64,000 nt of DNA from a virus. This document shows, piece by piece, positions 3,231 to 47,500 of the stretch (position 1 is the first letter of the stretch; the number at the start of each line of letters is the position of its first letter). The stretch is from IMG/VR virus record IMGVR_UViG_3300009345_000003, positions 32,001 to 96,000 of that record; one strand, 5' to 3'. The notes under the pieces are model-generated. The model made no database searches and had not been told where the DNA came from. It saw only the letters and a program-made list of their open reading frames with translations. The position numbers were made by a program, and so were the translations under genes.

Positions 3231-3275
3231 AAAAAAATCTCCAAAAGTTCATTAAGAACTAATGGAGATTTTTTT
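3231..3275. terminator. Bidirectional intrinsic terminator-like hairpin
   Basis: AAAAAAATCTCCA-aa-AGTTC-attaa-GAACT-aa-TGGAGATTTTTTT, with a T-run on both strands. Confidence 0.7.
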
Positions 3276-8466: not shown

Positions 8467-9158
8467 TAGCTTTTCAATCTTGCTAGCTCACGAGCCATTT
8501 CCTCATGAGACATTTCACGCATAAGTTTTGCAGCTTTTTCTTTGTACTCTTTGCTCTCTGTACAACTTTCATGGTCATCATCTGATTCCAGAGATATACC
8601 TGCCGCCCGTGCAGCATCTTCAAAAGATGAGCAAAAATGATATTTTGAAAAATCCACTTCTTGCACATCGTACTTACTACCTGGATTACCCCAAACACCA
8701 TATTTACGTGCATAATACTCTGTTTCCACAAACTTTTCGGCGTCTTCACGCTTACGAAAATAAAAAGGTGTACGTAACGTTACCCCTCTACCTTCAGTAC
8801 TGTCGCTATTGTATATAGCAACATAATACTTACCTGTTGGCGCTTCTGCGGTGGCTATATTATCTGCGGTATCCTTAGTAACTTCTGTAATGATGTCTAA
8901 AAGACTGCAATTAACAGAGCTGCCCTCAATAATACGATGATTATTATTATTTTGCATATTGAAATAGTCTACATTTACAAGCTTACCCCATATAGAACCT
9001 ACAGGTACTGTTGGATAACCATAAGTCAGAAGTACATCAGCAACCCACTGAGCTATATAATCCCTGGAAACCCTCCTGTTACCTAAAACACAGTGCAATT
9101 CAATCGCAGTATAAAAGCAAACATTTACTAATTCTTGTAATTTATCTTTATTATTCAT
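8466..9158 (-). CDS. Hypothetical protein (probably two fused domains)
   Basis: GGAGCTAAC-ATG start; N-part ...GYPTVPVGSIWGKL, C-part NSDSTEGRG motif. Confidence 0.7.
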   Translation of the reverse strand: MNNKDKLQELVNVCFYTAIELHCVLGNRRVSRDYIAQWVADVLLTYGYPTVPVGSIWGKLVNVDYFNMQNNNNHRIIEGSSVNCSLLDIITEVTKDTADNIATAEAPTGKYYVAIYNSDSTEGRGVTLRTPFYFRKREDAEKFVETEYYARKYGVWGNPGSKYDVQEVDFSKYHFCSSFEDAARAAGISLESDDDHESCTESKEYKEKAAKLMREMSHEEMARELARLKS

Positions 9159-9475
9159 GTTAGCTCCTTGAATACATTAGTATACTCAATATATGCGTCA
9201 GCCTCTTTCTGTACCATCTCTTTCAACCAACGCCTCCAGTCACCTTTGAAAGCATCTACTGGAACAAGTATAATACCGTCTTCATAATCGACATCATCAC
9301 GGTCTAAACGATTATCCCAGCCGATAGCAATTTCGCCTGATGGACATAACGTAAAGTTCACATACTGAACCTGCTGCACCATGAAGTATTCGGCGTATGC
9401 ATGCAGTATCTCGTGTGCACGGACAGCTAACTTCACTTTACATTGCACGTAAATATTAAACGTAACGTCGAGCAT
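9155..9475 (-). CDS. Hypothetical protein, paralog of the N-terminal domain of 4172-4783
   Basis: RAHEILHAYAE vs RCEEIVKAYAD; ILVPVDAFKGDWRRWLKE vs IVIPTDRFVSNWVEWLAQ. Confidence 0.65.
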   Translation of the reverse strand: MLDVTFNIYVQCKVKLAVRAHEILHAYAEYFMVQQVQYVNFTLCPSGEIAIGWDNRLDRDDVDYEDGIILVPVDAFKGDWRRWLKEMVQKEADAYIEYTNVFKELT

Positions 9476-10774: not shown

Positions 10775-11279
10775 TTCTTAAATTCCTTTGTGCTTTCGAC
10801 CAGTCCCAATTAGGCCGTACGTTCACGTCAATATATGCGTTTCCAGCAGCATCATATGATGATGCTACGTACTCAATGAAATGCTTCTGGCGCATGTCTG
10901 AAATCTCTATAATTGTATCTAACACAGATAGCACGTTTTTTTTATTTACCGCTGTACTATCAGCTTCCACATAGTATCTAACCTCTTTATTTAAAGCACG
11001 CAAAAGCGCACCATAAAGATCAATGATATCCTTAGCTTCAGCAACATCGTTTGCATATTGTGTATATGTTTTGTGATCTACGTGATTTACAGATACATAA
11101 CAAATATCTTCTGCCGAATCAGTAGCTATATGCATGCCGAAATAGTCTGTTATAAGAAAACGCAGTATACGTTCAAAATCATCTTGGTATACCAAGCATG
11201 AAGAAAGCAGCTCATCCAAGCAAAAATCTTTACTTGTAAGATCATAATAGCAAATTATACGCATGTTATCCAAATCCAT
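10767..11279 (-). CDS. Hypothetical protein
   Basis: AAGGAGCTAAC-ATG start; overlaps the thyX start. Confidence 0.7.
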   Translation of the reverse strand: MDLDNMRIICYYDLTSKDFCLDELLSSCLVYQDDFERILRFLITDYFGMHIATDSAEDICYVSVNHVDHKTYTQYANDVAEAKDIIDLYGALLRALNKEVRYYVEADSTAVNKKNVLSVLDTIIEISDMRQKHFIEYVASSYDAAGNAYIDVNVRPNWDWSKAQRNLRNG

Positions 11280-11353
11280 GTTAGCTCCTTATAGTGTTTA
11301 TACGTTTTTTAGTTATACTTACTAACTCTTTATTAATATCTGTGCCTATTATA

Positions 11354-11846: not shown

Positions 11847-12009
11847 TTTGTTAGCTCCTTTAAGTGTATATATGACTTCCTACACACCGACTTATATTGT
11901 TGTTACTTATACTGCATGAAGAGTGCGAACTCATAAGTCGCTGCCTCGGTCAGTCGAAGACAGTAAAGCTATTTATAGTCTAGCTCCTAAAGACTAAAAA
12001 AATATTATT

Positions 12010-16138: not shown

Positions 16139-16543
16139 TCACAAATTGTCAATAGCTTTTTCGTATAATTTGATCACAAAATCTCTGTCTAAGTATGAAG
16201 GATCAAACAAATCCTCCTGAAACAGGGGGCATTGCGTAAAGCAACCAACATGGTCTATTTCATCATCACCTATAATCTGAAATGGGCACACCTGTGAAGG
16301 TCTACGTATTTTAGTGATTAGCTCACCGCGCTCAGCATATGCCACGGGATCATGTAACATCTTATTACTCCACACCGATTTTTCCACAGTGCATAAACCC
16401 CAGGTGCAATATGGTGCTCCATCTTCGGTAAACCCTTTTTCAAAAGGCTGTTTAGCCTTTATCATTCTGTATAACTTAGTCAATAAAGCTACATATTGAG
16501 GTTGACCTAAAAAGATACTGTTTTTCTTAGCCACTATACCCAA
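16139..16543 (-). CDS. Cys-rich hypothetical protein (possible metal binding)
   Basis: CTWGLC, CPF, CFTQCP; overlaps the polymerase stop. Confidence 0.65.
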   Translation of the reverse strand: MGIVAKKNSIFLGQPQYVALLTKLYRMIKAKQPFEKGFTEDGAPYCTWGLCTVEKSVWSNKMLHDPVAYAERGELITKIRRPSQVCPFQIIGDDEIDHVGCFTQCPLFQEDLFDPSYLDRDFVIKLYEKAIDNL

Positions 16544-19251
16544 ACCTCCGTTGTTTTAAAATCAACGTGCAATGTAATATCACCCAAAAAGTAATCAACT
16601 TTAGGATAATCAGTACGCACTTGCTCAAGCATTCCTTTTTTCATTAATGCTTCTGCTTCCTCTTTTGGCACTGAATTATGCACTTCCCATGTCATAGAGT
16701 CGTGGACTTCTGCCCACGGAAACACTTTAGTACCATACAAACCAGCTGCGGATAAAAGCTTATGTTGAGATACTAATGACAAAAGAAATATATCTGATGC
16801 TGTAGCCTGAACATAAGTGTTTACACCCTGGCGCAAAGCCTGTTCGTCCACATAAGGAAACTTTCTTTCGCGTCCAAAGACAGTACGTGCTTTCTTATGT
16901 TCTATAATATAATCACGTGTATTATTAATCCAGGTTTTCACTGAGGGCATACCTTCAAAAAAACGCTGCGTAAAAGCAGCAGCTGTTTCTATGTCCCAGG
17001 AGCCGTCTTCCAACTTCCAACCTAATGTGCTAGCAATACCTTCAGGTGTCATACCATAAAGTGTTCCAAATGATATAACCTTTGATGCCTGCCTAAACGA
17101 ATCGCCAAACTTTTCACGCTCTTTAGCATTCTTAATAATCATGTCATAAGGTATTTGAAATGCACGCGAAGCAATCATACTATGAAAATCAGCATCTTTA
17201 TCATGACATACAGCAGCAATTTCAGGTGACTTGCCATATGCGCCAGCAACACGAACTTCAATCTGTGAATAATCAGCATATGCCAGATAATAGCCGGGCC
17301 GCGCCTTAAAAATCTGCCGAGTATCCGCACCACGAGGCTGATTTTGAATATTAATCTGATTTGTTTTTCCAAGTCCTACCGAATCAGTTCCACCTGATGA
17401 AGTTCTACCAGAAGCGGTTGAGTTAGTCTTAAATGACGCATATACAAATTCACCCTCTCGTTTTTTAGCCAATCCAGTAACATATGTAGACATCTTTTTT
17501 GACGCTACTCGATAATCTAATAAAACCTTTAACAGTTCGTTGTCAGTCTCAGCATATTTATCTTTCAAAGTACCTTTTGTAGTGTTTTTTAAATTCCAAT
17601 CAGGGTGTGAATGTTTTATACATGCTAAAACAATATCATTTGATCTAGGATTAAAAAGCTTCACCCCCTTGGGCTTGTACGTCTTCATACGCTTACGCCC
17701 TTTCTTTTCACCAGTTTGTTTCAAAAACTCATTATGCTTACGTGCTTCTGCATTAGATACTCGAATGTCTTTTTCACGCTTAGCTTCTGCATAAGCATGC
17801 TCAGTTTTTACTTTATCATTATATGCAGCAACTTCAGGTGTATCTAAAAAACGCCTACATAACTGACGTAATTCGTCCATATATTCGTCAGCTTTCTTAT
17901 TTAATAGCGTATCATTAAGCATGATACCTCTAGCTTCCATGTCACGCAAAATAGGCTTTACACCACAGATTATCTTGTCATACAAAAACGACATATCCTG
18001 TTTATCTACATAGTATCTTAACTTAAAAAAGAGTATAGCTGCTGCCAGGACATCACCGGCGCAGTAATCATGAAGAGTCTTTGTGTCTATTTCCCTATAA
18101 TATTTACCAGCAGTAGCTTTACCTTTTTGTTTAATGTCACCTGCCCATGCTGCTAACTCAGGGGCGTATTCAAATATTAATGATTCAAGGTTAAACTTTT
18201 TCCTGGATTGGTTGACAACATAAGCCTCATCCATGGGATCGTTATTATTCCACACAAACACATCAGAGTGTCTCGCAAGTACACCTGAATCGTAATTACT
18301 ATTAAAAGCTACAGATTTAGTTTTAGCAATGGCTTTAGCTAACGTTGTGGTTACAGGACCAGTGTATATGACTAATTTTTTAGGATCATACGAAAAACTA
18401 TGACATCCAGGTGTATACGTAGTTTCCTCTAAATTTCTAAAAAACCCAAAACCTGTACATCGCGTCTGGCAGTATTCTTTACCGTACTGCCAGTCTAATG
18501 CAGATCGTTCAGATACAAGCGACATCCCTTTATATTTTATTTCTTTTTTTTCAAGTTTTTCCGGGCATATAGTTTCAAAGTCATATTGCAGAAATTCGCC
18601 CTTCCATCCTTGAATAAGCGCAACCATTTCCGTAACACGTTTAACAACGGTATATTCAAGCTTAATTTTTTCATTAAGATTAATATCACAATCACCACCT
18701 AGCGCTTTATCAAAAAGATTGCGTAAATCTGTTTTATATATTTCAAAAGCTTTGCGTTCAGATTCTTTAGTATATTTATAACCATCACGCTCACCATGTT
18801 TACGTAAATAGTATGATGGCGAATGCATACATATATAAATGCGCTCACCTTTGCGCACAATCTTATTACAAATCTCTACAATGTTACGACCTAATAACAT
18901 CTGCGGAGGATAATTACCTGCTAATAATATTATGTTGCCTTTAAACTGCTCTAGTTCATCTTCTAAAGTACTTTTAAAACAAGTCTTAGCTTCAGGCTTA
19001 TTTACACGCTCCTTACCCGGATAACATTTAACTGCATTAGTCACATAAACATAATCTCTATGGATTATATCCTCCAAGCCATTAAGTAAAAATTGAAACT
19101 CACTTTTACCCCAGCACTTACCATTAAATGTGGCTGATTTATTAGGATAGTCACCAATAACAAATAAAGTCTTCCCAGCTGGGGTATCTACTGGCCAGTA
19201 AGCTGTATTAGCAAAAAATTTACACTTATCGCACTTATCACTCTTGTACAT
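16534..19251 (-). CDS. Family A DNA polymerase with N-terminal family-4 UDG-like domain and 3'-5' exonuclease (SPO1-type architecture)
   Basis: UDG4: CDKC, IGDYP, VTNAVKC, HSPSY. Exo I YDFET, Exo II FNSNYD, Exo III YCAGD. Pol: TASGRTSS, NIQNQPR, motif A ADYSQIEVR, motif B RQASKVISFGTLYG, motif C EVHDS. Confidence 0.96.
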   Translation of the reverse strand: MYKSDKCDKCKFFANTAYWPVDTPAGKTLFVIGDYPNKSATFNGKCWGKSEFQFLLNGLEDIIHRDYVYVTNAVKCYPGKERVNKPEAKTCFKSTLEDELEQFKGNIILLAGNYPPQMLLGRNIVEICNKIVRKGERIYICMHSPSYYLRKHGERDGYKYTKESERKAFEIYKTDLRNLFDKALGGDCDINLNEKIKLEYTVVKRVTEMVALIQGWKGEFLQYDFETICPEKLEKKEIKYKGMSLVSERSALDWQYGKEYCQTRCTGFGFFRNLEETTYTPGCHSFSYDPKKLVIYTGPVTTTLAKAIAKTKSVAFNSNYDSGVLARHSDVFVWNNNDPMDEAYVVNQSRKKFNLESLIFEYAPELAAWAGDIKQKGKATAGKYYREIDTKTLHDYCAGDVLAAAILFFKLRYYVDKQDMSFLYDKIICGVKPILRDMEARGIMLNDTLLNKKADEYMDELRQLCRRFLDTPEVAAYNDKVKTEHAYAEAKREKDIRVSNAEARKHNEFLKQTGEKKGRKRMKTYKPKGVKLFNPRSNDIVLACIKHSHPDWNLKNTTKGTLKDKYAETDNELLKVLLDYRVASKKMSTYVTGLAKKREGEFVYASFKTNSTASGRTSSGGTDSVGLGKTNQINIQNQPRGADTRQIFKARPGYYLAYADYSQIEVRVAGAYGKSPEIAAVCHDKDADFHSMIASRAFQIPYDMIIKNAKEREKFGDSFRQASKVISFGTLYGMTPEGIASTLGWKLEDGSWDIETAAAFTQRFFEGMPSVKTWINNTRDYIIEHKKARTVFGRERKFPYVDEQALRQGVNTYVQATASDIFLLSLVSQHKLLSAAGLYGTKVFPWAEVHDSMTWEVHNSVPKEEAEALMKKGMLEQVRTDYPKVDYFLGDITLHVDFKTTEVWV

Positions 19252-19263
19252 GCAAAACCCCTT

Positions 19264-21015
19264 TTAAATCTTAAATCCTGCACGCTTATTAAATTCTCCA
19301 CCTGCATCACGTGAAGTTTCCCTAAAACATACTTGATCAGTACGATACTCTAACCATTTACGACCACCACACGAATGTCGCCCTGCATCATTACGAATAG
19401 ACATTTTTTGTTTAAAGCTTGAGTCGTCCGTATCATTTTTATCTCTATGTAAAATTAATAACGCATCGGAATCAGATACAGCAGCACCAGACCAAGCCAC
19501 ATCATTGCTAGACATCTCCTTATGTGATGACTGTTTCCTTGGCTGCGCAATACAAATAATAGGTATATTTAGTTCTAAAGTAATATCCTTGAATGCTTTG
19601 TACGCATTCTCCATGGCCACAGCTTTACCTGTAGAATCCGTAACATTGCGCACCATGTAATGTATATTGTCAAATACAATAAGATCAACACCATATCGAG
19701 CATAAGCATCCCTAAATGTTTGCATTAAAACATCTTGCTTTACATTAGAATCGTAACCAATAAAAAGAGGTAACTTATCACGATATGTTTCCATAAATAC
19801 ATATCTATCTGCACCAGTCACTTCACGCCCGACACCTAAGAGCATTCCAATAGATATGTCTAACAAATCACGCCCGGACATCTCCATACAATAAAATAAG
19901 CAGCGTTTGTTTTGAAGACATGCATCTAAACACAAAGACATGGCAAATGTAGTTTTACCAATTTTAGGCGGAGCAGTCAGTGTAATTAAATGACCAGCAG
20001 TCAAACCACCGCCAAGTAGCTCATTCACTCCAGGTAAATAAGTATAAATGTGATTTTCATCACCTGTTACAATGGCATCAGTAAGAATGGTATCTATATT
20101 TTGTATGGCGGGTAAATCTATTAGTTCTGCTTGCTTAATTAAACTTTTAAATCGTTCGTCACCGTTAGGCCCATTTAAAACATCTGCAACGTCCATGCCC
20201 TCTGGTAATTCTGCAATCTTGGTCCTATACGTACCAAGACGTTGCGCAATCTTCCTGGCACCCTCCTGGCCTGCATCATCACCATCATATGCGATGATAA
20301 TCTCCTTGGCCTTAGATATAAGATCAAACCAGCGAGGTTCCATATTGCCTGCGCCGGAGGTTGTACCCACAGCATTTTTAAACCCGTGTTCCCAAGCCAC
20401 GATAAGGTCTTTTTCACCTTCGCAAACAAGTACAGTTTCTGGCTCTTCTACCTTGGCTAGCACATCCTCATTAATCATTATCTTTGAGGCATCTTTAATT
20501 TTTATGAAAGCTTTAGGATAATTAAACCATGTTTTAAACTTTACATCATATAAAGCACCATTTTTTATAAGGGGGGTTACTAATGCAGGATAACTATCAT
20601 CCAAGCTAGGAAAAAAATAATTATCTGTGTAGCCTAATTTAAAATGTTTTACTGTTTCTTCAGTGATACCCCAATTAACGCATAGTTCAGATAATAACTC
20701 AGAATCATCAATGAGAACAGCATGTGCATTCTCAACATCAATCATATTATCTTCTGATAATGCTTTTAATTTTGATGATGATGGTGCAGCTATACTAGAT
20801 GTTAAACCTAGTAAACGGTTCAAAGTAAACAAGTTACCTGACGTAGGCTTACCATTCTTTTCATGTCTGTTTAAATTAAAACATTTGAACAAACCAGAAA
20901 AAGCATTGATACTAAACCCATCGCCATCACATAAGGGACATCTACGTAATTTTATTTCGTCATTATCTTCACGAAATTCATAGCCCTGCTGTTTAACCCA
21001 ATCAATAGGCTTCAT
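19264..21015 (-). CDS. Primase-helicase (T7 gp4 / Twinkle-like)
   Basis: CPLC zinc finger, TOPRIM VCEGEKD and AYDGDDAG, Walker A APPKIGKT, IVFDNIH, IAQPRK. Confidence 0.95.
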   Translation of the reverse strand: MKPIDWVKQQGYEFREDNDEIKLRRCPLCDGDGFSINAFSGLFKCFNLNRHEKNGKPTSGNLFTLNRLLGLTSSIAAPSSSKLKALSEDNMIDVENAHAVLIDDSELLSELCVNWGITEETVKHFKLGYTDNYFFPSLDDSYPALVTPLIKNGALYDVKFKTWFNYPKAFIKIKDASKIMINEDVLAKVEEPETVLVCEGEKDLIVAWEHGFKNAVGTTSGAGNMEPRWFDLISKAKEIIIAYDGDDAGQEGARKIAQRLGTYRTKIAELPEGMDVADVLNGPNGDERFKSLIKQAELIDLPAIQNIDTILTDAIVTGDENHIYTYLPGVNELLGGGLTAGHLITLTAPPKIGKTTFAMSLCLDACLQNKRCLFYCMEMSGRDLLDISIGMLLGVGREVTGADRYVFMETYRDKLPLFIGYDSNVKQDVLMQTFRDAYARYGVDLIVFDNIHYMVRNVTDSTGKAVAMENAYKAFKDITLELNIPIICIAQPRKQSSHKEMSSNDVAWSGAAVSDSDALLILHRDKNDTDDSSFKQKMSIRNDAGRHSCGGRKWLEYRTDQVCFRETSRDAGGEFNKRAGFKI

Positions 21016-21035
21016 ATAGTGTTAGCTCCAATCAG

Positions 21036-24796: not shown

Positions 24797-25091
24797 ACAA
24801 CTTACTCACAGCACTATCAAGAGCAGGGATAAGTTTGTGCATTTGTGATCTTGCTTCTTTGTCTTTACCTTTGGTACGACCACTAACAATAGGTGATACT
24901 CCGTTAGGATTTAACTTAATTACACCATCTGTAATAATTGTTGTCATACCCCTGCCACGCTTATAGCTGGCTTCTGCCCCCACAGGAAAAAGCTGTCTAG
25001 CAATGACAGTTAATTTTTCCTCCAAAAGCTTCTTTTCTTTTACAATGTCTAAGTACGAACGTAAAAGTTTTGCGCGTTCCTTGGGGTCCAT
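24783..25091 (-). CDS. Hypothetical basic protein
   Basis: AAAGGAG RBS. Confidence 0.65.
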   Translation of the reverse strand: MDPKERAKLLRSYLDIVKEKKLLEEKLTVIARQLFPVGAEASYKRGRGMTTIITDGVIKLNPNGVSPIVSGRTKGKDKEARSQMHKLIPALDSAVSKLYEES

Positions 25092-25105
25092 AAGTAATCT
25101 CCTTT

Positions 25106-26260
25106 TTAAAGTATTGAATCAAAATCAAACACTTTTTTCTCGTGTTCATTTATTTTTTTAATTAAATCATGCTCCTGACAAAAAGTAGAAAAGTTGTTAA
25201 AATCCAACTCAGTTAAACGATGACCATCATAATTATAATAAGGCAGCACGTACTTTTTACCCCGGTAATCCTTCCAATCGCCCTTATTACTCAGTTCGCA
25301 TAAACCTAAACTCGCAGCATAGGGTAATAATCCTGTGTAGGGTTCTACCACATTTGTGCGCTGCGAAAAAACGGGAATATACGTTTTTTTATATGCAGCG
25401 CCGGTTCTGGTTTTTTCAACACATGCTTCCAACCATTGACCGACTACAACGCCACCTTTATTAAATATTTTACCTGCCTGTGTAAGCTTCATACCTGAGT
25501 CACGATAGTAATCAGGAGCAGTACCACCAGCTTTTGTTTCACCTGAACCATAAGATGAAGGTTTAAATGTTACATGATTAGCAAACATAAAAAGAACTTT
25601 TGAATCTATCAGAGATGTCATAAGCCTCATTGTTTGATGAATTGCTTTTGCACGCTTACCCATATCTTCTGCCAACGATTCAGAACTAGAAAAGGCAGCG
25701 AGAGAATCAAGTATAACAATAACAGGCACACTAGAAGCAAGGAGCTTGCGACCAAGCTTACCAGCATCAGCACCATTTTTAGGATCAAATTTAACTTTTG
25801 CAAGTTCGGCCTCCACCTGTTTTGCTGACTTCTTCTCTTTTTTTAACTTAGCTGCTAACGCTTTCACTTGCCGCTGATGAAAACTCTCTGCTTCCAATGT
25901 CTGCAATATCGTTTGCAAATGGACGTATACATCACCAATATAAGGGATATCTTCTGGTGGTACAATCAATGTACGTTCAGGATCAATACCCAAGCGCAAA
26001 GTTCTATCAGTATCATATCCGCGCTCTTTATCAAAAATAACTAAAAAAGCATCAGGATTTAATTTTAAAGCATTAGCTGCAATCAGTGACATCACTAACG
26101 ATTTGCCTGACTTAGAAGGTCCATACAGCTCGACCATGTTACCATAATTGACGCCGGAATTTAGGATTATATCTAGTCCATATACACCAGTACCAATCTT
26201 TATACCCCTGTCATATTTTTTAAGAGCATTATATTGAGGTAGTCTATCAAAGTAACCCAT
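25106..26260 (-). CDS. RecA/UvsX-like recombinase
   Basis: IGTGVYGLDIILNSG, VELYGPSKSGKS, VILDSLAA, FANHV, ETKAGG, VEKTR. Confidence 0.92.
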   Translation of the reverse strand: MGYFDRLPQYNALKKYDRGIKIGTGVYGLDIILNSGVNYGNMVELYGPSKSGKSLVMSLIAANALKLNPDAFLVIFDKERGYDTDRTLRLGIDPERTLIVPPEDIPYIGDVYVHLQTILQTLEAESFHQRQVKALAAKLKKEKKSAKQVEAELAKVKFDPKNGADAGKLGRKLLASSVPVIVILDSLAAFSSSESLAEDMGKRAKAIHQTMRLMTSLIDSKVLFMFANHVTFKPSSYGSGETKAGGTAPDYYRDSGMKLTQAGKIFNKGGVVVGQWLEACVEKTRTGAAYKKTYIPVFSQRTNVVEPYTGLLPYAASLGLCELSNKGDWKDYRGKKYVLPYYNYDGHRLTELDFNNFSTFCQEHDLIKKINEHEKKVFDFDSIL

Positions 26261-26275
26261 TTAAAAGCCTCGCAA

Positions 26276-26752
26276 TTAGTAGTTTCTGACACCGTAACCA
26301 CAGATGTGCAAAGCATCTGCTAGACCATCTTTCCTACCCACATTAATACCTGGGTAGTGCTTCTCAGCCAAGGCTATTGAATTATCCTTAATAATCTTTC
26401 GTTTCATACCTTTAGCCATCTTTTTAGCTGGTACAAGCCCTGGTAACTGTTTCTGCCAATGATTCGGCCTGATTTCATATGTTGTAAACTTCAAAGCTAT
26501 ACAAAAAGCCTCAATATTACCGTAGTGTTGGAGATATGTTCCAGCTGATTTTATTCCTTGATTAGGCAGCGTCTGTGCTTTTTCAAGGATAGCAATCTTA
26601 CGACCTGAAAGTTTATAATATTTATAGAAAACATGTAAAATACCTAAAGGAGTAGGCGGCATTAAAGTCACCTCGTATCTACCATCAATACACGCGGCAA
26701 TAGCCCCTTGTTTACCAGGGTCTATGCCGAGATAAATCTTCCGCATAAGCAA
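26276..26752 (-). CDS. RuvC-like Holliday junction resolvase
   Basis: YLGIDPG, ILEK, RPNHWQK, DGLADALHI. Confidence 0.9.
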   Translation of the reverse strand: MLMRKIYLGIDPGKQGAIAACIDGRYEVTLMPPTPLGILHVFYKYYKLSGRKIAILEKAQTLPNQGIKSAGTYLQHYGNIEAFCIALKFTTYEIRPNHWQKQLPGLVPAKKMAKGMKRKIIKDNSIALAEKHYPGINVGRKDGLADALHICGYGVRNY

Positions 26753-26775
26753 TCCTTATTTTTTTGTATATGTCT

Positions 26776-26805
26776 ACTATTATGTTACGTACTAAAAGAT
26801 GTCAA
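26776..26805 (-). promoter_or_regulatory. Promoter P1 for the replication operon
   Basis: TTGACA (26805-26800)-N17-TAATAGT; spacer holds the 15-bp motif shared with 6762-6776. Confidence 0.6.
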
Positions 26806-26806
26806 T

Positions 26807-26888
26807 AAAAAAAAGCCGCGATGGTAGTAGATGAGAACCACAGCAGCTTTTTTTATACACCCATACATGGAGCTAACATGCGGGTAAG
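26807..26888 (-). ncRNA. Candidate sRNA-C (hairpin with anti-RBS loop plus terminator)
   Basis: TACCCGCATG-TTAGCTC-CATGTATGGGTG hairpin, then AGCTGCTGTGGT/ACCATCGCGGCT stem and T-run; G-U pairs on the minus strand. Confidence 0.6.
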
Positions 26889-26891
26889 ATA

Positions 26892-26920
26892 TGTATATAA
26901 TCCATTACCTTGTTAGTCAA
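26892..26920 (-). promoter_or_regulatory. Promoter P2 (sRNA-C)
   Basis: TTGACT (26920-26915)-N17-TATACA (26897-26892). Confidence 0.6.
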
Positions 26921-26924
26921 GATA

Positions 26925-27017
26925 ATAGTTGATTCCAGGCACATCGAAAGAGGAAATCTAAAAAGGAGTTAAAAATAAACCCCTCTCGATGCGCCACAAC
27001 TTAACAGTATCAACTAT
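26925..27017 (-). ncRNA. Candidate sRNA-B (long hairpin with anti-SD loop)
   Basis: ATAGTTGAT/ATCAACTAT outer stem; GGCGCATCGA/TCGATGTGCC and GAGG/CCTC inner stems; loop TTTTTAACTCCTTTT. Confidence 0.6.
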
Positions 27018-27018
27018 G

Positions 27019-27047
27019 TGTATAGGTACGCATGACTTATTTGTCAA
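27019..27047 (-). promoter_or_regulatory. Promoter P3 (sRNA-B)
   Basis: TTGACA (27047-27042)-N17-TATACA (27024-27019). Confidence 0.6.
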
Positions 27048-27052
27048 GATTT

Positions 27053-27157
27053 TAAAAGAATAAATCCTGGATACCGAAGCAGCCAGGATTTAAACTGAAA
27101 AATAAACACACATTTTGCAAAAAAGGATTTAGCTAATAAACACTAAATGTGCCTACA
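27053..27157 (-). ncRNA. Candidate sRNA-A (hairpin with anti-SD loop plus UUCG terminator)
   Basis: GCACATTT/AAATGTGT stem enclosing TTAGCTAAATCCTTTTT; TAAATCCTGG-c-TGC-TTCG-GTA-t-CCAGGATTTA followed by TTCTTTT. Confidence 0.55.
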
Positions 27158-27163
27158 AAACAT

Positions 27164-27192
27164 ATAGTACACAGTAGTAATTAAAAAAGCAA
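27164..27192 (-). promoter_or_regulatory. Promoter P4 (sRNA-A)
   Basis: TTGCTT (27192-27187)-N17-TACTAT (27169-27164). Confidence 0.55.
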
Positions 27193-27205
27193 GCAAAAAA
27201 ATCCA

Positions 27206-27235
27206 TTGACAGCTAATTAAATTAAGTATACTTCT
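27206..27235 (+). promoter_or_regulatory. Rightward promoter for the 957-aa gene, back to back with P4
   Basis: TTGACA at 27206, then TATACT (15-nt spacer) or TACTTCT (17-nt spacer). Confidence 0.55.
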
Positions 27236-27276
27236 AGAGGCGAAAAATCATTAATATAATGCACATTTATTAAAAA

Positions 27277-30150
27277 ATGTTTGTTAAAAGGAACCACGCT
27301 ATGAACAACTTAATGCCGTACGAACTAAATGCAATAATTAATAATAACTGTTTCAGAACTTTTAGAGCTGCACTGTACGCTTCATACAACCCGGCCAATT
27401 CCATAGCGCGTGACAAGAACACAACTCACAGCCAGCATATAGTTAAAAAAATGTATAGTTTAAGCAAGATGGCCAAAGTCCATTTGGCTATACTTGACAT
27501 GCCTATGCCTCTTCAAGCCTGTTTATCCTTGATAGGGATCATTAATTATATAAATCCAAAGTCCGAAACCAAAGAACGTGGAAACTGCTATGCTAAACGT
27601 CAAACTCTCATTGATGACTACCTACATTGCACAGCAGCCATCAGCCGCAGAGCTACTAACTACCTAAAGGATAATGGCTACGTAAAGTCCTACAAAGTAT
27701 ACATGTCTACAGACAGGTACACACCCTTATGGACAAATAATTACCTTCACAGTGATCACTTACGTCACAAGCAGCCTATCCCTAAAGTAGGTGCTAGAGT
27801 CGTTAATCTAGACACTCATTTGAAATACATGACCCTGCCCAAACTATTTTTTAAATCCAAAGTCATATCTAATAATGCCAAGTATTGGTTCATGCAATTA
27901 CTTAAAAAGCAGATGCATGAGTCTGTCAGGTTCATTAACCCTAAAGAAGGGAAAGGATATGTTACAAAAAAAGGCGAGTATAAAGAAGCGCGTCTTGAAA
28001 ACGTAATTAAAGAACTTGAACGTTTAGACTTAGTTGAATTTAAAGTATTCACGTCTCATAAAATGAAGTTCAAAGTAAGAACGTTCGCAGGTGTTTATCT
28101 TAGGCTCAAATTAGCAGAAGCAGGTAGGCTAAATAGCGACACCATTAAGAAGCTTAGATCAATGGAACCTACCTGGGATATGTTGGCAGAATCAGAATTA
28201 CTAGCTGGTTTCACAGCCGGTGGGTTAAACATTGCGTACGCGCCAGTCATGGATAAATTAAATGAGCAAGACCCTAAAAGCTCTTACCTCAAGCCGCATT
28301 TTGAATACTTGGAAGTTCCATATAATGTACCTGATGTCATCGACACTAGGGTAAATGAAGTCACACAAAGAATTTGTATGGGTTACCTGATCTCTGAGCA
28401 GTTGAAGCAGCAAGCAGGCAACCCGGAAGGTTACTTTGTAATTAATCAGACAGATATGCGTAAAGCCCTTGGTTATGGCCAGAACACAGTTACTGAATTC
28501 ATTAATGATTATGTACGCCACGACTTATTGGAAAAACTACATACTTCCACTAAATATGGGACAGTTTTGCGCTTCAAATACAATGAAAAAATACAGCGTA
28601 CTAGTAAGGGCACCATGCACCGCTTAAATGATGGTAAGTTCAAAGAACCTGAACATGGCGCGCCATATCAATATTCAGACGTTTACAGAACCGTTAGGTT
28701 GCCAAAAATTCTACTCATCAACGGCGTACTCAATGTGAAGGCGATTATTAGTGGCTGGATGGCAGCATACATGCAAGAATTCACTACCAGGAGTAAGAAG
28801 CTGACGATCACTGAGGTGTCTAGACGCATAGGTATCAAAAAAGAAAACATAATCAAAGCAATCAATGAATTACATAAGTTTGGTTTCGTCAGAAAAAAAA
28901 TAGTTAGTAAGGATCAATATAAGTTTCTCCACATGAATAATTACCAAATGCACCGATTGATCTGCCAAAAGGTTAAATCGTATAAACTATTGTCGCCGTT
29001 TACATTTTTTTTAGGAAACGTTGATGGTGTGACAAAAAAAGACTTAAATTTCAAACTAGACATAAACGGTATGAACCCGGAAGCGGCAAATACAGTACAA
29101 CAATTTTTTATTTCTTACGAAATAAATAAACTATATAAACACTCCCCCGTAAAGGAGGAGGGGTCTTCGCCCAGAGAGGTTAGTACTCTCTGGAAATCCT
29201 CAGTCCAGACTTGCTTTGCTTCGCAGCAATCTCCTACCAACTTCGTTGGATCAGATAGGATAGACATCCAATCTTTAGAAGATAGCCAGCAAATCTTTAA
29301 CGTAGTTCAGTCTATTCAGACTAGTCACAACCTTTGTAAATCACAGGATACATCTATTCCTTTAGTAGATATGTCAAAGACAGAGATGGAGCAGTCCACA
29401 GCTGACAAAAAGCAAAAAAATGAAAAACAACTCACGAGTTCTGACGATACCCTTAGTAGGACATCAGAAAAGAGTAAAAAGAAAAGCAGGCGTAAAAATA
29501 GGGCTAAGAAACATGGTTCTAGCAGCATAATACAACTAGACAAACTGGTTTGTTTAATGTCTGATCCTAAATATTCTACTGCCGACTTTGGAAGTATGGG
29601 TAAAAAGAAAATTTGTGGTACTTTGAGTGAAGCTTATTCAGTTTTTGGTGCTGCTGTTTCTCACCTGCTTGTGAGTGGCACTAAGAATATTAAGAAGAGA
29701 GAAAAGGCTAAAGCTTTGGCTAAGAAACTTACAAATAAGCAGCTTCTTACTATGTTGCGTAATTACATGGGTAAGTGCCGTAACGGCTATAAAGCCCTTA
29801 TGCGCTATATTTTGTGTATGGCCTCCAACTATTGTGGTCGTGATGATTTCACGTTTGATTTTATACAAGCTACTACTATGTGCCTCAAAGGTATTTTACA
29901 AACTGGCGGTGCTACTGATTTTCAGGTGTTACGTGATAAGCTAACCGAAGTTGGTGGTGATGTTGTAGCTGGTGATGTGAAGTTTACAAAAACTGATTTG
30001 TTTAAAACAATTAAAGAATTAGATAAGTTGGAATACTATGGTGATGACAATGTATCTGACGCTCTCCTAGATCAATTGGATTTATATAAAAATTCTCTTG
30101 TAATAGTTCGTAAAGAGCATTTGTACTATAACATGCAGGGTGTTTGCTAA
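27277..30150 (+). CDS. Large multi-winged-HTH DNA-binding protein, probable replication initiator (likely start 27301)
   Basis: Four HTH_36-like segments (CYAKRQTL...ISRRATNYLKDNGYV; ENVIKELERLDLV; INQTDMRKALGYGQNTVTEFINDY; LTITEVSRRIGIKKENIIKAINELHKFGFV), an S/K-rich linker and a helical C-domain. Confidence 0.6.
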   Translation: MFVKRNHAMNNLMPYELNAIINNNCFRTFRAALYASYNPANSIARDKNTTHSQHIVKKMYSLSKMAKVHLAILDMPMPLQACLSLIGIINYINPKSETKERGNCYAKRQTLIDDYLHCTAAISRRATNYLKDNGYVKSYKVYMSTDRYTPLWTNNYLHSDHLRHKQPIPKVGARVVNLDTHLKYMTLPKLFFKSKVISNNAKYWFMQLLKKQMHESVRFINPKEGKGYVTKKGEYKEARLENVIKELERLDLVEFKVFTSHKMKFKVRTFAGVYLRLKLAEAGRLNSDTIKKLRSMEPTWDMLAESELLAGFTAGGLNIAYAPVMDKLNEQDPKSSYLKPHFEYLEVPYNVPDVIDTRVNEVTQRICMGYLISEQLKQQAGNPEGYFVINQTDMRKALGYGQNTVTEFINDYVRHDLLEKLHTSTKYGTVLRFKYNEKIQRTSKGTMHRLNDGKFKEPEHGAPYQYSDVYRTVRLPKILLINGVLNVKAIISGWMAAYMQEFTTRSKKLTITEVSRRIGIKKENIIKAINELHKFGFVRKKIVSKDQYKFLHMNNYQMHRLICQKVKSYKLLSPFTFFLGNVDGVTKKDLNFKLDINGMNPEAANTVQQFFISYEINKLYKHSPVKEEGSSPREVSTLWKSSVQTCFASQQSPTNFVGSDRIDIQSLEDSQQIFNVVQSIQTSHNLCKSQDTSIPLVDMSKTEMEQSTADKKQKNEKQLTSSDDTLSRTSEKSKKKSRRKNRAKKHGSSSIIQLDKLVCLMSDPKYSTADFGSMGKKKICGTLSEAYSVFGAAVSHLLVSGTKNIKKREKAKALAKKLTNKQLLTMLRNYMGKCRNGYKALMRYILCMASNYCGRDDFTFDFIQATTMCLKGILQTGGATDFQVLRDKLTEVGGDVVAGDVKFTKTDLFKTIKELDKLEYYGDDNVSDALLDQLDLYKNSLVIVRKEHLYYNMQGVC

Positions 30151-30166
30151 CGTACTAACTTAAAAA

Positions 30167-30526
30167 ATGGAGCTAATAATGGTTGTAGATAATCCTAGCG
30201 AAATGCTGGAACGATGCCTTACCAATTTGGAAGTAGGTGTTTTGCATAAAGTCACACCTGATTTAAAGGCTTACATTCGTAAAGCTATTATACAAAAAAA
30301 ATTTTACTTAACTGAAAACAATCAGACAATACGTGCCGATTTATACGCCATAGGGGTAGGTGCAACATTTACTTTGGAAGATTTTATAATCTTATTAACT
30401 GATAACGCACATGTATTTTACGACGATGCACGAATTAGCAATGATAAAGTTATGCGTAGCACTGTAAATGATATCTTTACGTATCTCTTTGGCATCACAT
30501 ATGATGAAATACTGGAAGGAGCATAA
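30167..30526 (+). CDS. Hypothetical protein (likely start 30179)
   Basis: GGAGCTAATA-ATG; directly downstream of the 957-aa gene. Confidence 0.65.
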   Translation: MELIMVVDNPSEMLERCLTNLEVGVLHKVTPDLKAYIRKAIIQKKFYLTENNQTIRADLYAIGVGATFTLEDFIILLTDNAHVFYDDARISNDKVMRSTVNDIFTYLFGITYDEILEGA

Positions 30527-30551
30527 AAAAAGGGCGGCTTTTAAACCGCCC
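30525..30551 (-). terminator. Intrinsic terminator between convergent genes
   Basis: GGGCGG-N8-CCGCCC with a T-run on the minus strand. Confidence 0.7.
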
Positions 30552-37627: not shown

Positions 37628-38099
37628 TGGTGATAATCTCCTAATAAGAACGCTACGTGAATATGAGTGTTTGAACTTTACATGTGTGGCTGGTCCAGAG
37701 TCACTGCATTTTAATACGGATCATTATAGATACCAAATAAAAATGCAAACTAATGTCATAAGACCTTCATATGTAACGACAATACCTGCTATAGTTAGAA
37801 TTTTATTAGGTAAGATGAACCGTATGAGGACTGTATGCTACGCTTTATATAAGTGTGATACTATGCCTTTGAGTCCTTACGACTTTTTAACGGCGCTTGA
37901 TCCAAAGAATGGTTATAAGTATGGTTCAGATGAAACATTTACTGTAATCGAAGACGATGGTTTAGAGAAATTCTATTACATTTCTAGAGACAACGAATCA
38001 ATATTATTTTCAGGAGCTAACAATGGATTGGAAAAACCTTTCACCTGTAGAAATAGCTGCGATGTCAACCAGGGAATTAATGGAGAGGATGTATATTGA
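37605..38099 (+). CDS. Hypothetical protein
   Basis: GGAG RBS; overlaps both neighbours. Confidence 0.6.
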   Translation: MKFIHVYDGDNLLIRTLREYECLNFTCVAGPESLHFNTDHYRYQIKMQTNVIRPSYVTTIPAIVRILLGKMNRMRTVCYALYKCDTMPLSPYDFLTALDPKNGYKYGSDETFTVIEDDGLEKFYYISRDNESILFSGANNGLEKPFTCRNSCDVNQGINGEDVY

Positions 38100-44538: not shown

Positions 44539-47500
44539 TTATTTACCAAATATATCCAAGCTGGTTAGAACGTTTTTAATGGTTTTTACACCATCTGGTG
44601 ATGTAATATATCTTTGAAATAATCTGGGATCAGTTATGTTTTGTATATTTATCTTTTTATTTTGTCCAATAGGGGCTGGCTGATTATTCTGTATATTAGA
44701 TGTACCTACATCCCTAGCTTGAGTAGCGTCCGACAGTGATTTTAAGTATGTGGACGGTAAAGAACGAATAGCCCCTTCTATGTTACCTTGGTTTAAGGCC
44801 CGTACAAAGCTTACACCGAGCTTTCTAGTAATTGGCTCGTTAAGTACACCTTCTCCTTTAGTGAGAAATGCGGCTGTGGAATCTGCGTGTTTGTTGCCTT
44901 TAGTAACTACTCCGCTACTATTGATCCCTCCCTCAGCGAAGGCATTAATAACTGTGCCAAAGTGTGCCGCAGTACCTCCCACAGCACCTAATGCACCACT
45001 CAGAGCACCACCCATACCAGTAACACTAGCCGCAGAATTCATACCGCCTTGCATAGCCATTGATGTTTGTTGCATGGTTTGAGCTGCCAGCATAATTTGA
45101 TCGCTGGCCTGCATTTGCAATGTAGCGGACTGCATCATCTGCTGGCTAGCTACCTGCATAAGCTGCTCTTTGCTTGCGTTTTCAGGTATTTGCATCTGGC
45201 CTGCTTGTGCTTCACCGCCTCCTCCACCAAGTAAGCTACCTAATATGCCACCTACGGAACCGAGTATTCCACCAAGTATGCCTCCACCACTAAACATACT
45301 ACCTACGGAACTAGCCATCTTTGTTAAGCCACCTAAGTCAGCACTTTCGGTAGCAGCTGGTTGTGCTGGAGTCATATTAGCTAGTAAGCTTTTATCAATG
45401 CCATCTATAGACCTGCTATCAATGGTCGGGGTGGATGTTGTGTCCAGGAGCGCGTCAGCAGCATTAGCAGTTTTGTCTACCTCTAGTGACTTGAGCAAGT
45501 TTACAGCACCTGCACTTTGAGGTGTAGGTATGTTAGCAGTTGTACCAGTTGCATCCGCTTGACCGGGCGCGCTGGGTACTTGTGCATTTTGCTGAGATAC
45601 AGTAGTCGCCGCAGCAAACCTATCCACGGCTGCTTGGAAGTTAGCTACAGAAGTTTGGAAGTTTGTTCCGGTTGCAGCATTCTTGGTAGCTGTCTGTTGA
45701 TTCTGCTGAACTATCTGCATATTATTAGTGTGCTGTGTCTGGTTTTGAGTTTTTTGCTGTTCAGCAGTCATTTTATTAGTTTGAGCAGCAGTAGTTTGAG
45801 TATCAGCAGCAGTTTGTTGAGTGTTAGCCGCTACTTGTTCTGTAGCTTGCTCACCTATGTTATCAGCTTCAGAAGTAGCTGTATTTAGCATGTTTTTAGA
45901 CCACATTTGACCTAACTGATTAATACCGGCATCGATCATGGAGTTTACCCAGGATTCAATAATCTTCCAGTTCATGTCATATAATGCTTGTTCTAAATCT
46001 ACATCTTCACCAGCCAAACCTCGAAGTGAAGTCATGACACTAGTATTGATAGCTTCAGCATAAGTATCGAATTGAGTCTCTACAGCCTTAGCAAAAGATG
46101 CGTCTATGTCTTTATATTTTTCAAAAAATGCAAATGCTCCTTCTTGTACAGGATTTAAATCAACATTAGCCTTTTTCAAATCATTCATGAGCGCAGCTAA
46201 CACACTACCTAACCTGTGTGCCTCAGCTGTAGTGTCATTAAGTTTATCAGTCCACTCATCGGTAGCTTCACCAGCCTTATCAGCAGCCTGGACATACTGT
46301 TTTACCTTGGAACCTAAAGAATCTTGTAATTCAGTACCCTTAGCACCAGCACCGTCAACAATAGCCTTGGCGTCATTGTTTCTTGCAGTGATTTGCTGTG
46401 TATACGTGTCGATACGCTTACCAATTTCAAGAACAATCTCTCGTATAGCTACAGCATTCTTTACTAAGGCTTCTCTAGCTGCCTGGGCTTGTGAATGACG
46501 TATTTCCTCCATTTTCAGTTTAATATTCTGAAGTTGAGTTAATTTATCGTTTACTTCTACTGCCGTGTTATATGCTTCCATACCGGACGCTGTGCGCGGC
46601 TGATCAATAGCGTAGCTTATTAAAGTATCACGCCAATCTTGCACAGCAGAAATCATAGAATCGATTGTAGGCTGTATTTCACCAATACCTTGCACGTACA
46701 TGGGAGCCATCTGCTGCTGATACGATTCCTGTTCAATTAATAGAGATTGTTTATCATAGTATCGTTCAGGCTGTGACACGTTATTAACACGCTGATACTC
46801 CATGAGTTTTTTATTGAACGCACTTTGACCCGTGTTCATCTCATCATAGAAACTACGTATGGAATCCTGCATAGTTACAATGGTATCAGTTAGTGTTTTT
46901 ACAGAAGCTTGTACTGTAGCTAATTTACCAACAGCGTTAGTGGAAAAACTAGTCCAAGCAGACTTAGCAGCCATGGAATCTTTGAGATGTTCAGTTTGTT
47001 TAGCTGTTATTTGCAGCTGCTGGTCTAGAGACTCCAAGGAAGCCGTGGATGTAGCTACTTGCTTTTTAACGTCTGAGAAAGCATTGGACATAGCTTCACC
47101 CAGATTTACATAGTTAGACGTATCGCTTAGCTCTTGGGCTTGTTTAAGCTGCCTCATGAACGTATCATATGAAGAACTAGCAGTATCAATAGCAAGCTTT
47201 GTTTTTAGAATAGAAGAAACATATTTCCACTGTTCTTTAACTAGCTTGCGTATATTCTTTCCAGACTCAGATATGGCGCGACTATCAAATACATTTTTAG
47301 CCGCTGTTTTCATATAATTATATTTTTCAGTAGCTAAGTCTAACTTATCAAGTAAGTCATCGTATGAAGTCATGTCATCAAGCTTGGTGATGTCTTTAAT
47401 ATACTGAGCACCCTTTTTACTGGCATTACCAATTTGCGCGGCTGATTGTACAGACATCTTCGAATGAGCAGCAATATCACGTGCTATGGCAGCTATCTTT

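Follow-up and report, generated by a model that had tools for sequence, protein, structure and literature searches.

A gap between two diverging gene blocks

The window, a 64,000-nt stretch of the complete genome (135,961 bp) of an uncultured phage, contains the largest gap of that genome, a 555 bp interval at 26747-27300 that separates two diverging gene blocks. On the minus strand, a RuvC-UvsX-primase/helicase-PolA block begins at the RuvC ATG (26746) and is predicted to be read from the promoter P4; the gap's other neighbour is the gene for a 957-aa protein with weak HTH matches. The gap region is AT-rich and contains hairpins. Cumulative GC skew dips to a local minimum at the gap, where the change in skew coincides with the switch in gene strand, and no iteron-like repeat family was found, the repeats being two-copy only and 9-21 nt long. 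A cmscan search of Rfam across 25000-29000 on both strands, with E-values up to 10, returned no match, c4 included. Promoter hairpins for an N4-like virion RNA polymerase were considered and rejected, the 3288-aa protein being a tape measure protein and not a polymerase.

Four leftward promoters with 17-nt spacers had been proposed in a preliminary description of this DNA, and their coordinates, sequences and spacings were confirmed. On the minus strand, P1 (27164-27192) joins TTGCTT (27192-27187) to TACTAT (27169-27164), P2 (27019-27047) joins TTGACA (27047-27042) to TATACA (27024-27019), P3 (26892-26920) joins TTGACT (26920-26915) to TATACA (26897-26892), and P4 (26777-26805) joins TTGACA (26805-26800) to TAATAG; the -35 boxes at 27192, 27047, 26920 and 26805 are thereby set at intervals of 145, 127 and 115 bp. 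When agreement with a sigma-70-like consensus is required at 9 or more of its 12 positions, the gap holds three promoter matches on the minus strand (P2 to P4) and none on the plus strand, compared to a mean of 0.19 matches in 5000 dinucleotide shuffles of the gap (P = 0.0018 for three or more). P1 is a weak sigma-70-like site that falls under the cutoff because it scores 7/12, and a rightward TTGACA (27206-27211) stands back to back with it. The -10 boxes of P2 and P3 are without the usual final T and that of P4 is poor; an automated scan flagged P4 alone on the minus strand. P2 and P3 are a paralogous pair, and both ATCTTGAC and TTGACW-N17-TATACA are found nowhere else in the whole genome.

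No close relative of the locus was found. Near and distant searches with the DNA of 26300-27700 gave no match among 50,697 phage records, a single-protein query with RuvC gave none in viral contigs, and RuvC and the 957-aa neighbour had no homologues but themselves among 5.8 billion proteins. A search with UvsX gave best matches at 42% identity, and a subsequent alignment-based scan yielded 10 loci; the nearest phages have UvsX identities of 34-41% and GC contents of 54-60%. In the nearest relative locus, one clear TTGACA promoter precedes RuvC, and tandem units are absent.

Three noncoding units and their folding

Downstream of P1, P2 and P3 lie three units, A, B and C, whose frames are 20-29 aa only and all without a Shine-Dalgarno sequence, leaving no credible ORF. 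Unit C (26807-26885, minus strand) is a small-RNA candidate about 78 nt long, in which a hairpin at the 5′ end (26885-26859) is joined by an A-rich linker to the terminator tC (26854-26815), which has a GC clamp, U8 at 26814-26807 and A7 on its other side, making it bidirectional. The predicted start of P3, near 26885, is the base of the hairpin, and by its sequence signals the unit is a compact arrangement of promoter, hairpin and terminator. tC was recovered in a genome-wide terminator scan (41 matches, about ten of them intergenic), and its U tract is directly abutted by the -35 box of P4.

Unit A (27055-27157, minus strand, about 100 nt, with P1 upstream) folds into a 10-bp G-U-rich stem around a 35-nt loop that holds UUAGCUAAAUCCUUUUUU, and ends in the terminator tA (27092-27061, minus strand), a UUCG-tetraloop hairpin of -16.1 kcal/mol followed by AUUCUUUU, whose U tract is interrupted; both terminator scanners overlooked it. 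Unit B (26925-27012, minus strand, with P2 upstream) has a 16-bp stem (26995-26980 with 26953-26938, including 3 G-U pairs) and an outer 9-bp stem, and encloses a 26-nt U-rich loop with AACUCCUUUUU, the core of which is at 26969-26965. P2 transcripts must run on into unit C, because unit B is without a terminator. These features agree with the preliminary description, which had listed three ORF-free hairpin units, two of them with terminators.

Folding calculations favour the minus strand in all three units. In particular, the minus and plus strands fold to -28.7 and -18.1 kcal/mol in unit A (z of -4.9 and -3.5), to -34.8 and -23.5 kcal/mol in unit B (z of -6.0 and -4.1), and to -29.3 and -23.6 kcal/mol in unit C (z of -5.7 and -4.8), a difference of 5-11 kcal/mol, and none of 200 shuffles folded as well for any unit on either strand. 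G-U pairs make up 6/31, 6/34 and 3/26 pairs of the minus-strand folds of units A, B and C, respectively, and 3-6 of them per unit turn into C-A mismatches on the plus strand, as had been claimed from the first. The sequence signals and the strand preference of the folds are direct results of these computations; taken with the terminator of A, the minus-strand structure makes it probable that A and B are small RNAs as well.

The same calculations bear on whether the gap is a replication origin, with transcription from P1-P3 as the primer or activator of initiation beside the replication genes. Transcription-activated origins exist in phages and plasmids, and the region is suggestively placed, with the replication block on one side and the gene of a large HTH protein on the other; it also has a local skew minimum and AT-rich DNA with hairpins. 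However, the skew change falls at the gene-strand switch, iteron-like repeats are missing, and the stems act at the RNA and not the DNA level because they depend on G-U pairs; an origin was therefore rejected as extremely unlikely.

The order of promoters and terminators raises the further question of whether the units control how much transcription enters the RuvC-UvsX-replication operon, for instance by way of an antiterminator of the phage, with the hairpins serving as elements recognised by polymerase or protein, the short RNAs as by-products and the mirrored start-site tag (described below) as incidental. In phage lambda, pR′-tR′ yields a terminated leader RNA of the 6S type under phage antitermination. 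Every unit points into the operon, P2 transcripts would enter unit C, tA may leak through its interrupted U tract, and P4 has its poor -10 box. Opposed to this, the operon has its own promoter, because P4 lies after the strong stop tC; no antiterminator was recognised in 10 neighbouring genes, most phage proteins here being without a family; and a 17-nt identity with the start-site tag is left unexplained. A leader or attenuator is thus a possible but unlikely reading.

Complementarity to gene starts

The loop and upper stem of the 5′ hairpin of unit C form an anti-start-site element, CAUGUUAGCUCCAUGUA (26864-26880, minus strand; TACATGGAGCTAACATG on the plus strand), with the 7-nt loop UUAGCUC at 26876-26870. 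Its complementarity to gene starts is extensive: 17/17 nt at the start of a gene that lies outside the window (100781 when counted in window coordinates), 12/12 nt at five gene starts (9158, 11279 and three more outside the window), and 10-11 nt at 21015, 11846, 6688, 30179 and 38023, including every match that had been listed for it. At least 10 nt are complementary in 12 of 180 start regions, a count that no control window matches, and among 6934 genomic control windows the best complement is 15 nt, reached in 3 windows, versus 17 nt for unit C. Moreover, none of 5000 shuffles of unit C that keep CUCC attains the observed maximum. Duplexes of unit C with nine start regions range from -24.7 to -35.4 kcal/mol, compared to a lowest value of -24.3 kcal/mol among 25 shuffles, a thin set of controls. 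Ten of the 17 complementary bases sit in the unit's own stem, and the 5′ hairpin has a folding energy of -8.5 kcal/mol. Significance was judged by the genomic-window and shuffle controls and not by blastn-short E-values, which look too optimistic for AT-rich words (four 15-mers had E = 0.059 each). Gene starts were taken from a crude heuristic combining ORFs and Shine-Dalgarno sequences, and public calls start elsewhere for at least two genes.

The other two units differ. As described before, unit B is complementary over 10-11 nt at the starts 7994, 9475 and 13101, and unit A over 8 nt, a partial match, at 14034. Yet the anti-Shine-Dalgarno loop of unit B is marginal versus shuffles keeping CUCC (p from 0.026 to 0.55), and its duplex energies lie near the range of the shuffles (best -23.4 kcal/mol versus a lowest value of -23.1 kcal/mol among 25); for unit A, about 5% of random genomic windows are equal or better, so that its complementarity to start regions is ordinary. 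The target sets of B and C are disjoint, with 0 genes in common at 9 nt or more, and the loops of A and B (UAAAUCCUUUUU and UAACUCCUUUUU) are alike at 11 of 12 positions. Unit B carries a generic anti-Shine-Dalgarno loop, a CUCC core within a U/A-rich loop, and by sequence the U-rich UCC/CUCC loops of A and B are probably both generic in this manner and not specific addresses. Among A, B and C, the antisense match to a start-region tag is clearly beyond chance only for unit C. The earlier idea that each RNA has its own ribosome-binding-site address consequently holds for unit C, which beats the CUCC-keeping controls, but not for B, which is marginal, nor for A, which fails. Likewise, a modular cassette of such RNAs retains its leftward ORF-free units, but P1 is weak and unit B has no terminator.

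What unit C mirrors is a private tag, GGAGCTAAC(A)ATG, that some ten unrelated genes of the phage have in common. Among the 9-mers of start regions, GGAGCTAAC is the most frequent (9 of 181), and of its 11 copies in the genome, nine are at gene starts, one is intragenic and the last, which is inverted and stands alone, belongs to unit C. The gene-start copies are all in sense orientation at a fixed spacing ahead of the start codon. A long duplication is ruled out because the similarity among tagged starts is confined to the 17-22-nt tag. Searches of Pfam, PHROGs and a protein atlas gave no informative family for 9 of 10 tagged genes, the primase-helicase being the exception, and the target genes have no known function in common.

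Outside this genome, the exact 25-nt pattern of unit C has 0 occurrences in metagenome contigs and 0 in viral contigs. The 14-nt form of the tag, AAGGAGCTAACATG, occurs in 119 stretches of viral contigs; it is single in each of the 80 matches listed, and among these matches there is no relative that shares the tag. In two distant relatives (G001 and G002, with GC contents of 0.60 and 0.54), the count showed no comparable tag, every 9-mer of the start regions having at most 3 occurrences; this is weak evidence, the ORF caller being crude on GC-rich DNA.

These counts also speak to the reading that unit C is a relic, a short inverted copy of the tag that landed in the gap and, transcribed or not, regulates nothing. 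Purifying selection on the copy cannot be shown because the genome is a singleton, and the targets are without a common function, both of which suit a relic. Contrary to it, the copy comprises precisely the tag, without any addition; the flanking ACCC and GGGU extend it into a hairpin that begins at the predicted 5′ end of the transcript and is followed by a terminator, which makes a compact unit; and it complements five start regions at 12 nt, whereas no other site outside the start regions appears to complement more than two. These points make a relic distinctly unlikely.

The copy also reads as a perfect tag with ATG on the plus strand, where it leads only a 12-codon frame, and a function on that strand or at the DNA level can be framed in four versions: the GGAGCTAACATG copy may start a 12-codon micro-ORF; the tag may serve as a DNA operator that binds, for instance, the multi-HTH protein encoded next to the gap; an RNA of the plus strand may show GGA loops, as a CsrA-type sponge does; or a plus-strand promoter-like site at 26873-26901 (CTAACA-17-TATAAT, 10/12) may give the 957-aa gene a long leader, with units A and B as its cis-antisense RNAs. 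The hairpins do fold on the plus strand as well (z from -3.5 to -4.8), and the 957-aa neighbour has its weak HTH matches. However, the bidirectional terminator lies 13 nt upstream of the tag, the automated scan lists nothing promoter-like on the plus strand from RuvC up to the tag copy, transcription from the 26873-26901 site would start downstream of the ATG, and the plus-strand folds are weaker and lose G-U pairs to the extent given above. For the operator, the sense orientation and fixed spacing of 9 of 11 tag copies before gene starts fit a translational role instead. Taken as a group, the four versions are very unlikely. The micro-ORF was rejected on account of the terminator upstream of the tag and the lack of a promoter-like site ahead of it. 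A sponge of the CsrB/RsmZ type was likewise rejected, the plus-strand folds being weaker, the array not being followed by a terminator on that strand, and the automated scan listing nothing promoter-like ahead of it.

A candidate translational regulon and its known counterparts

Unit C probably encodes a small RNA that controls translation, because it is the exact mirror of the tag on about ten genes. In the preferred reading, which we give roughly an even chance, the gap holds leftward noncoding units and the RNA of unit C pairs with the start-site tag to control a translational regulon. The three units would be read leftward by the host's sigma-70-type RNA polymerase, upstream of the operon promoter P4 and insulated from it by tC. 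The hairpin of unit C would expose UUAGCUC, with loop and upper stem complementing the GGAG-CUAAC-AUG of the tagged genes. Pairing would probably start at the loop, cover the Shine-Dalgarno sequence and the AUG, and keep 30S subunits off the mRNAs, so that one RNA might hold down, or time, the regulon that the tag defines. The non-random complementarity of unit C is a computed result; from it and the other signals we infer that the RNA is transcribed and pairs in the cell, that it represses and does not activate, and that timing is involved.

A wider version, which we consider unlikely, takes the gap as a three-channel translational controller, in which about 10 genes of the GGAGCUAAC class would answer to unit C, about 6 of the AAGGAGUUA class to unit B, and the AAGGAUU class, to which RuvC at the head of the adjacent operon belongs, to unit A; a tag and the RNA loop that mirrors it would then be a general phage device that also explains the start-associated sequences of Cluster K phages.

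Known phage antisense RNAs that block ribosome-binding sites act on one gene or a few individual sites each. If the preferred reading is true, a single small RNA would govern many unrelated genes at once, by virtue of one private extension of the ribosome-binding site that each of them carries, and a phage would have a cheap way to a translational regulon. Phages also control gene classes through proteins: in T4, the repressor RegA and the endoribonuclease RegB act via initiation regions or GGAG motifs, whereas unit C is a candidate antisense RNA. Firmicutes small RNAs such as S. aureus RNAIII and the Rsa RNAs pair C/U-rich loops with GGAG/GGGA cores, and are host-encoded with defined regulons; the loops of A and B resemble theirs, yet fail to beat shuffled controls.

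Among phage antisense RNAs, c4 is processed out of the transcript that also carries its target, and P22 sar and lambda OOP are further RNAs of its kind. A review describes c4 of P1/P7 as an RNA that acts on one gene, ant, with a specificity that underlies heteroimmunity (PMC12197685). Like c4 as described there, unit C would be a small structured phage RNA with loop bases predicted to pair around a phage ribosome-binding site, blocking translation; unlike c4, it has its own promoter and terminator, lies far from its targets and matches about ten unrelated genes. SviR of the Vibrio PLE satellite (10.1101/2022.04.08.487710) and the lambda small RNA LPR1/PreS (10.1101/2024.10.31.621285) are trans-acting RNAs of mobile elements that have transcription units of their own, base-pair with several mRNAs and alter their translation. 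Their targets are individual sites from interactome sequencing and the RNAs are experimentally shown, whereas here a repeated tag lies in the phage's own starts and unit C is predicted from its sequence.

The closest counterpart of the tag is the start-associated sequence (SAS) of Cluster K phages. Three papers describe a private motif with a Shine-Dalgarno core that extends past the 16S rRNA pairing, stands immediately ahead of the start codon in 13-19 non-structural genes that are unrelated, has one further copy in the opposite orientation, and has a role stated as unknown, a question open since 2011 (PMC3203893, PMC11373665, PMC12699233). The tag resembles SAS in standing upstream of many unrelated starts in sense orientation with a rare inverted copy, but the 13-bp SAS consensus is GGGATAGGAGCCC, compared to GGAGCTAAC-ATG here, and the host and phage lineage differ too; judged by sequence, the tag is the same kind of element as SAS and not a member. 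In Cluster K, which offers an independent parallel to unit C, the sole inverted SAS lies in the apical loop of an RNA helix in which 7 of 9 pairs show compensatory changes, located in a conserved gap near the right end that corresponds to 59700-60070 of Anaya. The inverted copies thus differ in setting, one in the apical loop of a covarying helix and the other in a promoter-hairpin-terminator unit. None of the three papers connects the inverted copy with an RNA, no literature was found that ties SAS to RNA, and supplement tables of two of the papers (PMC3203893, PMC12699233) may list inverted sites. If true, the preferred reading would give a concrete, testable answer on the purpose of start-associated sequences, and a bench test is possible because Cluster K phages are cultured, with genetics and RNA-seq data.

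The intergenic gap and its promoters

The source record is a complete 135,961-bp IMG/VR virus genome (the window holds its bases 32001-96000) and is that of a long-tailed phage. Its 3288-aa protein (44539-54405, minus strand) contains a tape measure domain, PhageMin_Tail, at residues 1488-1680 and implies an unusually long tail. A single 905-aa frame (16534-19251, minus strand) couples a family A DNA polymerase (PolA) to a uracil-DNA glycosylase domain at the N terminus (residues 24-156). The PolA is only ~22-25% identical to that of any of 2189 matching phage records; the record further encodes a primase-helicase, a UvsX-like recombinase and a RuvC-like resolvase. The largest non-coding gap in the genome (26747-27300; 197 ORFs from a simple in-house caller) separates the leftward RuvC-UvsX-replication block from a rightward block that opens with a 957-aa orphan protein (27277-30150, plus strand), which has weak HTH matches only (MarR_2 and TrmB, below Pfam cutoffs). 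Its start is publicly called at 27469 (893 aa), and a Shine-Dalgarno-like AAAGGAA favours 27301. Among 5.8 billion proteins, no homologues were found for either the RuvC or this neighbour.

The gap carries four minus-strand sigma-70-like promoters, the first three leading into ORF-free hairpin units A, B and C. P1 (TTGCTT-17-TACTAT, -35 box at 27192) has only 7/12 matches; P2 (TTGACA-17-TATACA, 27047) and P3 (TTGACT-17-TATACA, 26920) have a -10 box that lacks the usual final T; and P4 (TTGACA-17-TAATAG, 26805) has the RuvC start (26746) downstream. At a cutoff of at least 9/12 matches, the gap contains three sites on the minus strand and none on the plus strand, while 5000 dinucleotide shuffles of the gap average 0.19 sites and reach three or more in 0.18% of cases; genome-wide there are 41 such matches, 13 of them within the 7757 non-coding bases. 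A separate promoter scan flagged P4 alone among the four. Judged by their sequences, P2 and P3 are a paralogous pair, sharing ATCTTGACwAAyAAG...TATACAyAT, a combination absent elsewhere in the genome. Two promoter-like sites lie on the plus strand: CTAACA-17-TATAAT (26873-26901), which overlaps the P3 -10 box and, if used, would produce a leader of ~390 nt that is antisense to units B and A, and TTGACA-15-TATACT (27206-27234), which stands back to back with P1 and more probably serves the 957-aa gene.

A start-site tag and its antisense copy

The commonest start-region 9-mer is GGAGCTAAC, found in 9/181. Its 11 genome copies comprise nine before start codons in sense orientation, one intragenic and one in unit C. 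The extended tag, GGAGCTAAC(A)ATG, lies at 9156-9167, 11277-11288, 11850-11858, 21021-21029, 38013-38021 and 30169-30176 in the window and at genome positions 17733, 20312, 23337, 129926 and 132772. The tagged genes, about ten, are unrelated, occupy both strands and several gene blocks, and show no paralogy at their 5′ ends; the likeness of their leaders to unit C is restricted to 17-22 nt. At two copies (genome ~17716-17741 and ~20295-20320), ~24 upstream bases are identical, as read by eye. Pairing with 16S rRNA accounts for the GGAG and has no role for the CTAAC spacer, which must therefore be under selection for some other purpose.

The preliminary description had proposed a cassette of three small RNAs, each with a loop antisense to its own class of phage ribosome-binding sites. 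All the sequence features that it described are present; the proposed address holds for unit C alone, unit B being marginal against shuffles and unit A ordinary. Complementarity was scored against the start regions (-22 to +6) of 180 ORFs, those among the 197 that reach 60 aa, with starts called by a Shine-Dalgarno heuristic; the controls were 6934 windows of 90 nt drawn from both strands outside start regions. Unit C has a longest perfect complement of 17 nt, at the gene at window coordinate 100781 (beyond the window), with 12/12 complements at five genes and at least 10 nt at 12 genes; in the control windows, the longest complement is 15 nt (three windows), and none pairs over at least 10 nt with as many as 12 genes. 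With CUCC held in place and 12 nt on either side shuffled 5000 times, 0/5000 shuffles reach 17 nt or the number of genes that unit C matches at 9 nt and at 10 nt, and 1/5000 reaches its number at 11 nt. Its predicted duplexes with nine start regions range from -24.7 to -35.4 kcal/mol, and 25 shuffles go no lower than -24.3. Complements of 12 nt connect unit C to five start regions and other non-start sites to at most two (list read by eye). One coding-region stretch of 14 nt, TTAGCTCCTGAAAA (68254-68267, plus strand), is complementary to the start region of the 38023 gene, probably by chance.

Unit B has seven genes at 10 nt or more (equalled in 3/6934 control windows and in 0/848 containing CTCC), is marginal against local shuffles (p from 0.026 to 0.55), and has a best duplex of -23.4 kcal/mol, barely beyond the lowest of 25 shuffles (-23.1). 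Unit A is ordinary, with ~5% of control windows doing equally well and shuffle p values of 0.05-0.27; its loop could pair at 10/11 positions with the start region of RuvC, AAAUAAGGAUU (26751-26761). Two observations are treated as leads only: at 9 nt or more the target sets of B and C share no gene, and the loops of A and B are 11/12 identical (UAAMUCCUUUUU, minus strand; 26960-26971 and 27120-27131).

Structure, strand and competing readings

On the minus strand, units A, B and C have folding z values of -4.9, -6.0 and -5.7 (0/200 shuffles as good for each) and are 5-11 kcal/mol more stable than their plus-strand counterparts, with G-U pairs at 6/31, 6/34 and 3/26. A replication origin can hardly be credited, as no iterons were found and the stems need G-U pairs. 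In the terminator of unit A, the tetraloop is C(UUCG)G and the U tract is interrupted; two terminator scanners missed this terminator. That of unit C, tC, combines a GC clamp with U8 (A7 on the opposite side) and is among about ten intergenic terminators in a genome-wide scan. Elsewhere, two further intergenic terminators are strong: the one at 3237-3269 is a perfectly bidirectional hairpin with U8 on both strands, and the one at the convergent junction at 30531 consists of GGGCGGUUUAAAAGCCGCCC followed by U7. No terminator ends unit B, and P2 transcripts should therefore continue to tC, whose U tract abuts the P4 -35 box; thus, a strong stop precedes the operon's own promoter. If the array were an attenuator or antitermination leader, the tandem terminators would be accounted for but the mirrored tag would not, and we consider this reading rather unlikely.

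The plus-strand copy in unit C is a perfect ribosome site with ATG, yet it heads a 12-codon frame only. A bidirectional terminator lies 13 nt upstream of it, between RuvC and the tag the promoter scan lists nothing promoter-like on the plus strand, and CTAACA-17-TATAAT would initiate downstream of the tag's ATG. Roles on the plus strand or at the DNA level fit these signals and the folding poorly and are very unlikely. Minus-strand transcription from P3, predicted to begin at ~26885, would open directly with a hairpin that has a 7-nt loop, UUAGCUC; an A-rich linker and then tC come next. This order and the poor plus-strand signals lead us to interpret unit C as a ~78-nt small RNA, a partly supported candidate that would present an anti-tag in its 5′ hairpin. 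An evolutionary relic is improbable, leaving the compact promoter-hairpin-terminator design unexplained.

Overall, a single candidate anti-tag small RNA, rather than a three-address cassette, is a reading to which we give an even chance on this sequence evidence. Its loop, whose UUAG we take to fit the YUNR U-turn motif of antisense recognition loops, would nucleate pairing on mRNA GAGCUAA; the duplex would then extend across the Shine-Dalgarno sequence and AUG and shut out the 30S subunit, so that tagged genes would be repressed or timed.

Comparison with c4 RNA and Cluster K phages

The nearest functional analogue of unit C is the c4 RNA of P1/P7, which serves one target gene, ant (PMC12197685); Rfam models, c4 among them, gave no match in the gap region. 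As for the tag, its closest counterpart is the start-associated sequence (SAS) of Cluster K mycobacteriophages, whose role is called unknown in the passages searched of three papers (PMC3203893, PMC11373665, PMC12699233). Those papers do not mention an ‘anti-SAS’ hairpin, and the literature searches listed none that connects SAS with an RNA; Pope et al. note one SAS copy in opposite orientation. In phage Anaya (record 25000-60835; 35,836 bases scanned), there are 16 plus-strand copies and one minus-strand copy, the latter at record 59870-59882 inside a 385-nt gap. Its transcribed strand reads GGCCUCCUAUCCC, which makes up the apical loop of a conserved GCGCG/CGCGC hairpin, in a region kept in 182 Mycobacterium phage records, over which some annotators put a CDS. 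Thirteen phages (Anaya and 12 others, chosen by eye for spread from 40 records listed) were aligned. The loop is different in 2/13 and differs between subclusters without an obvious matching tag change. In the aligned region (Anaya record ~59790-59960), the 9-bp helix enclosing the hairpin shows two-sided compensatory changes in 7/9 pairs, with a covariation score of 0.292 against 0.185 for shuffles (0/500 as high) and 0.05-0.10 for slid partners. The inverted-SAS hairpin of Cluster K is thus a candidate ‘anti-SAS’ RNA.
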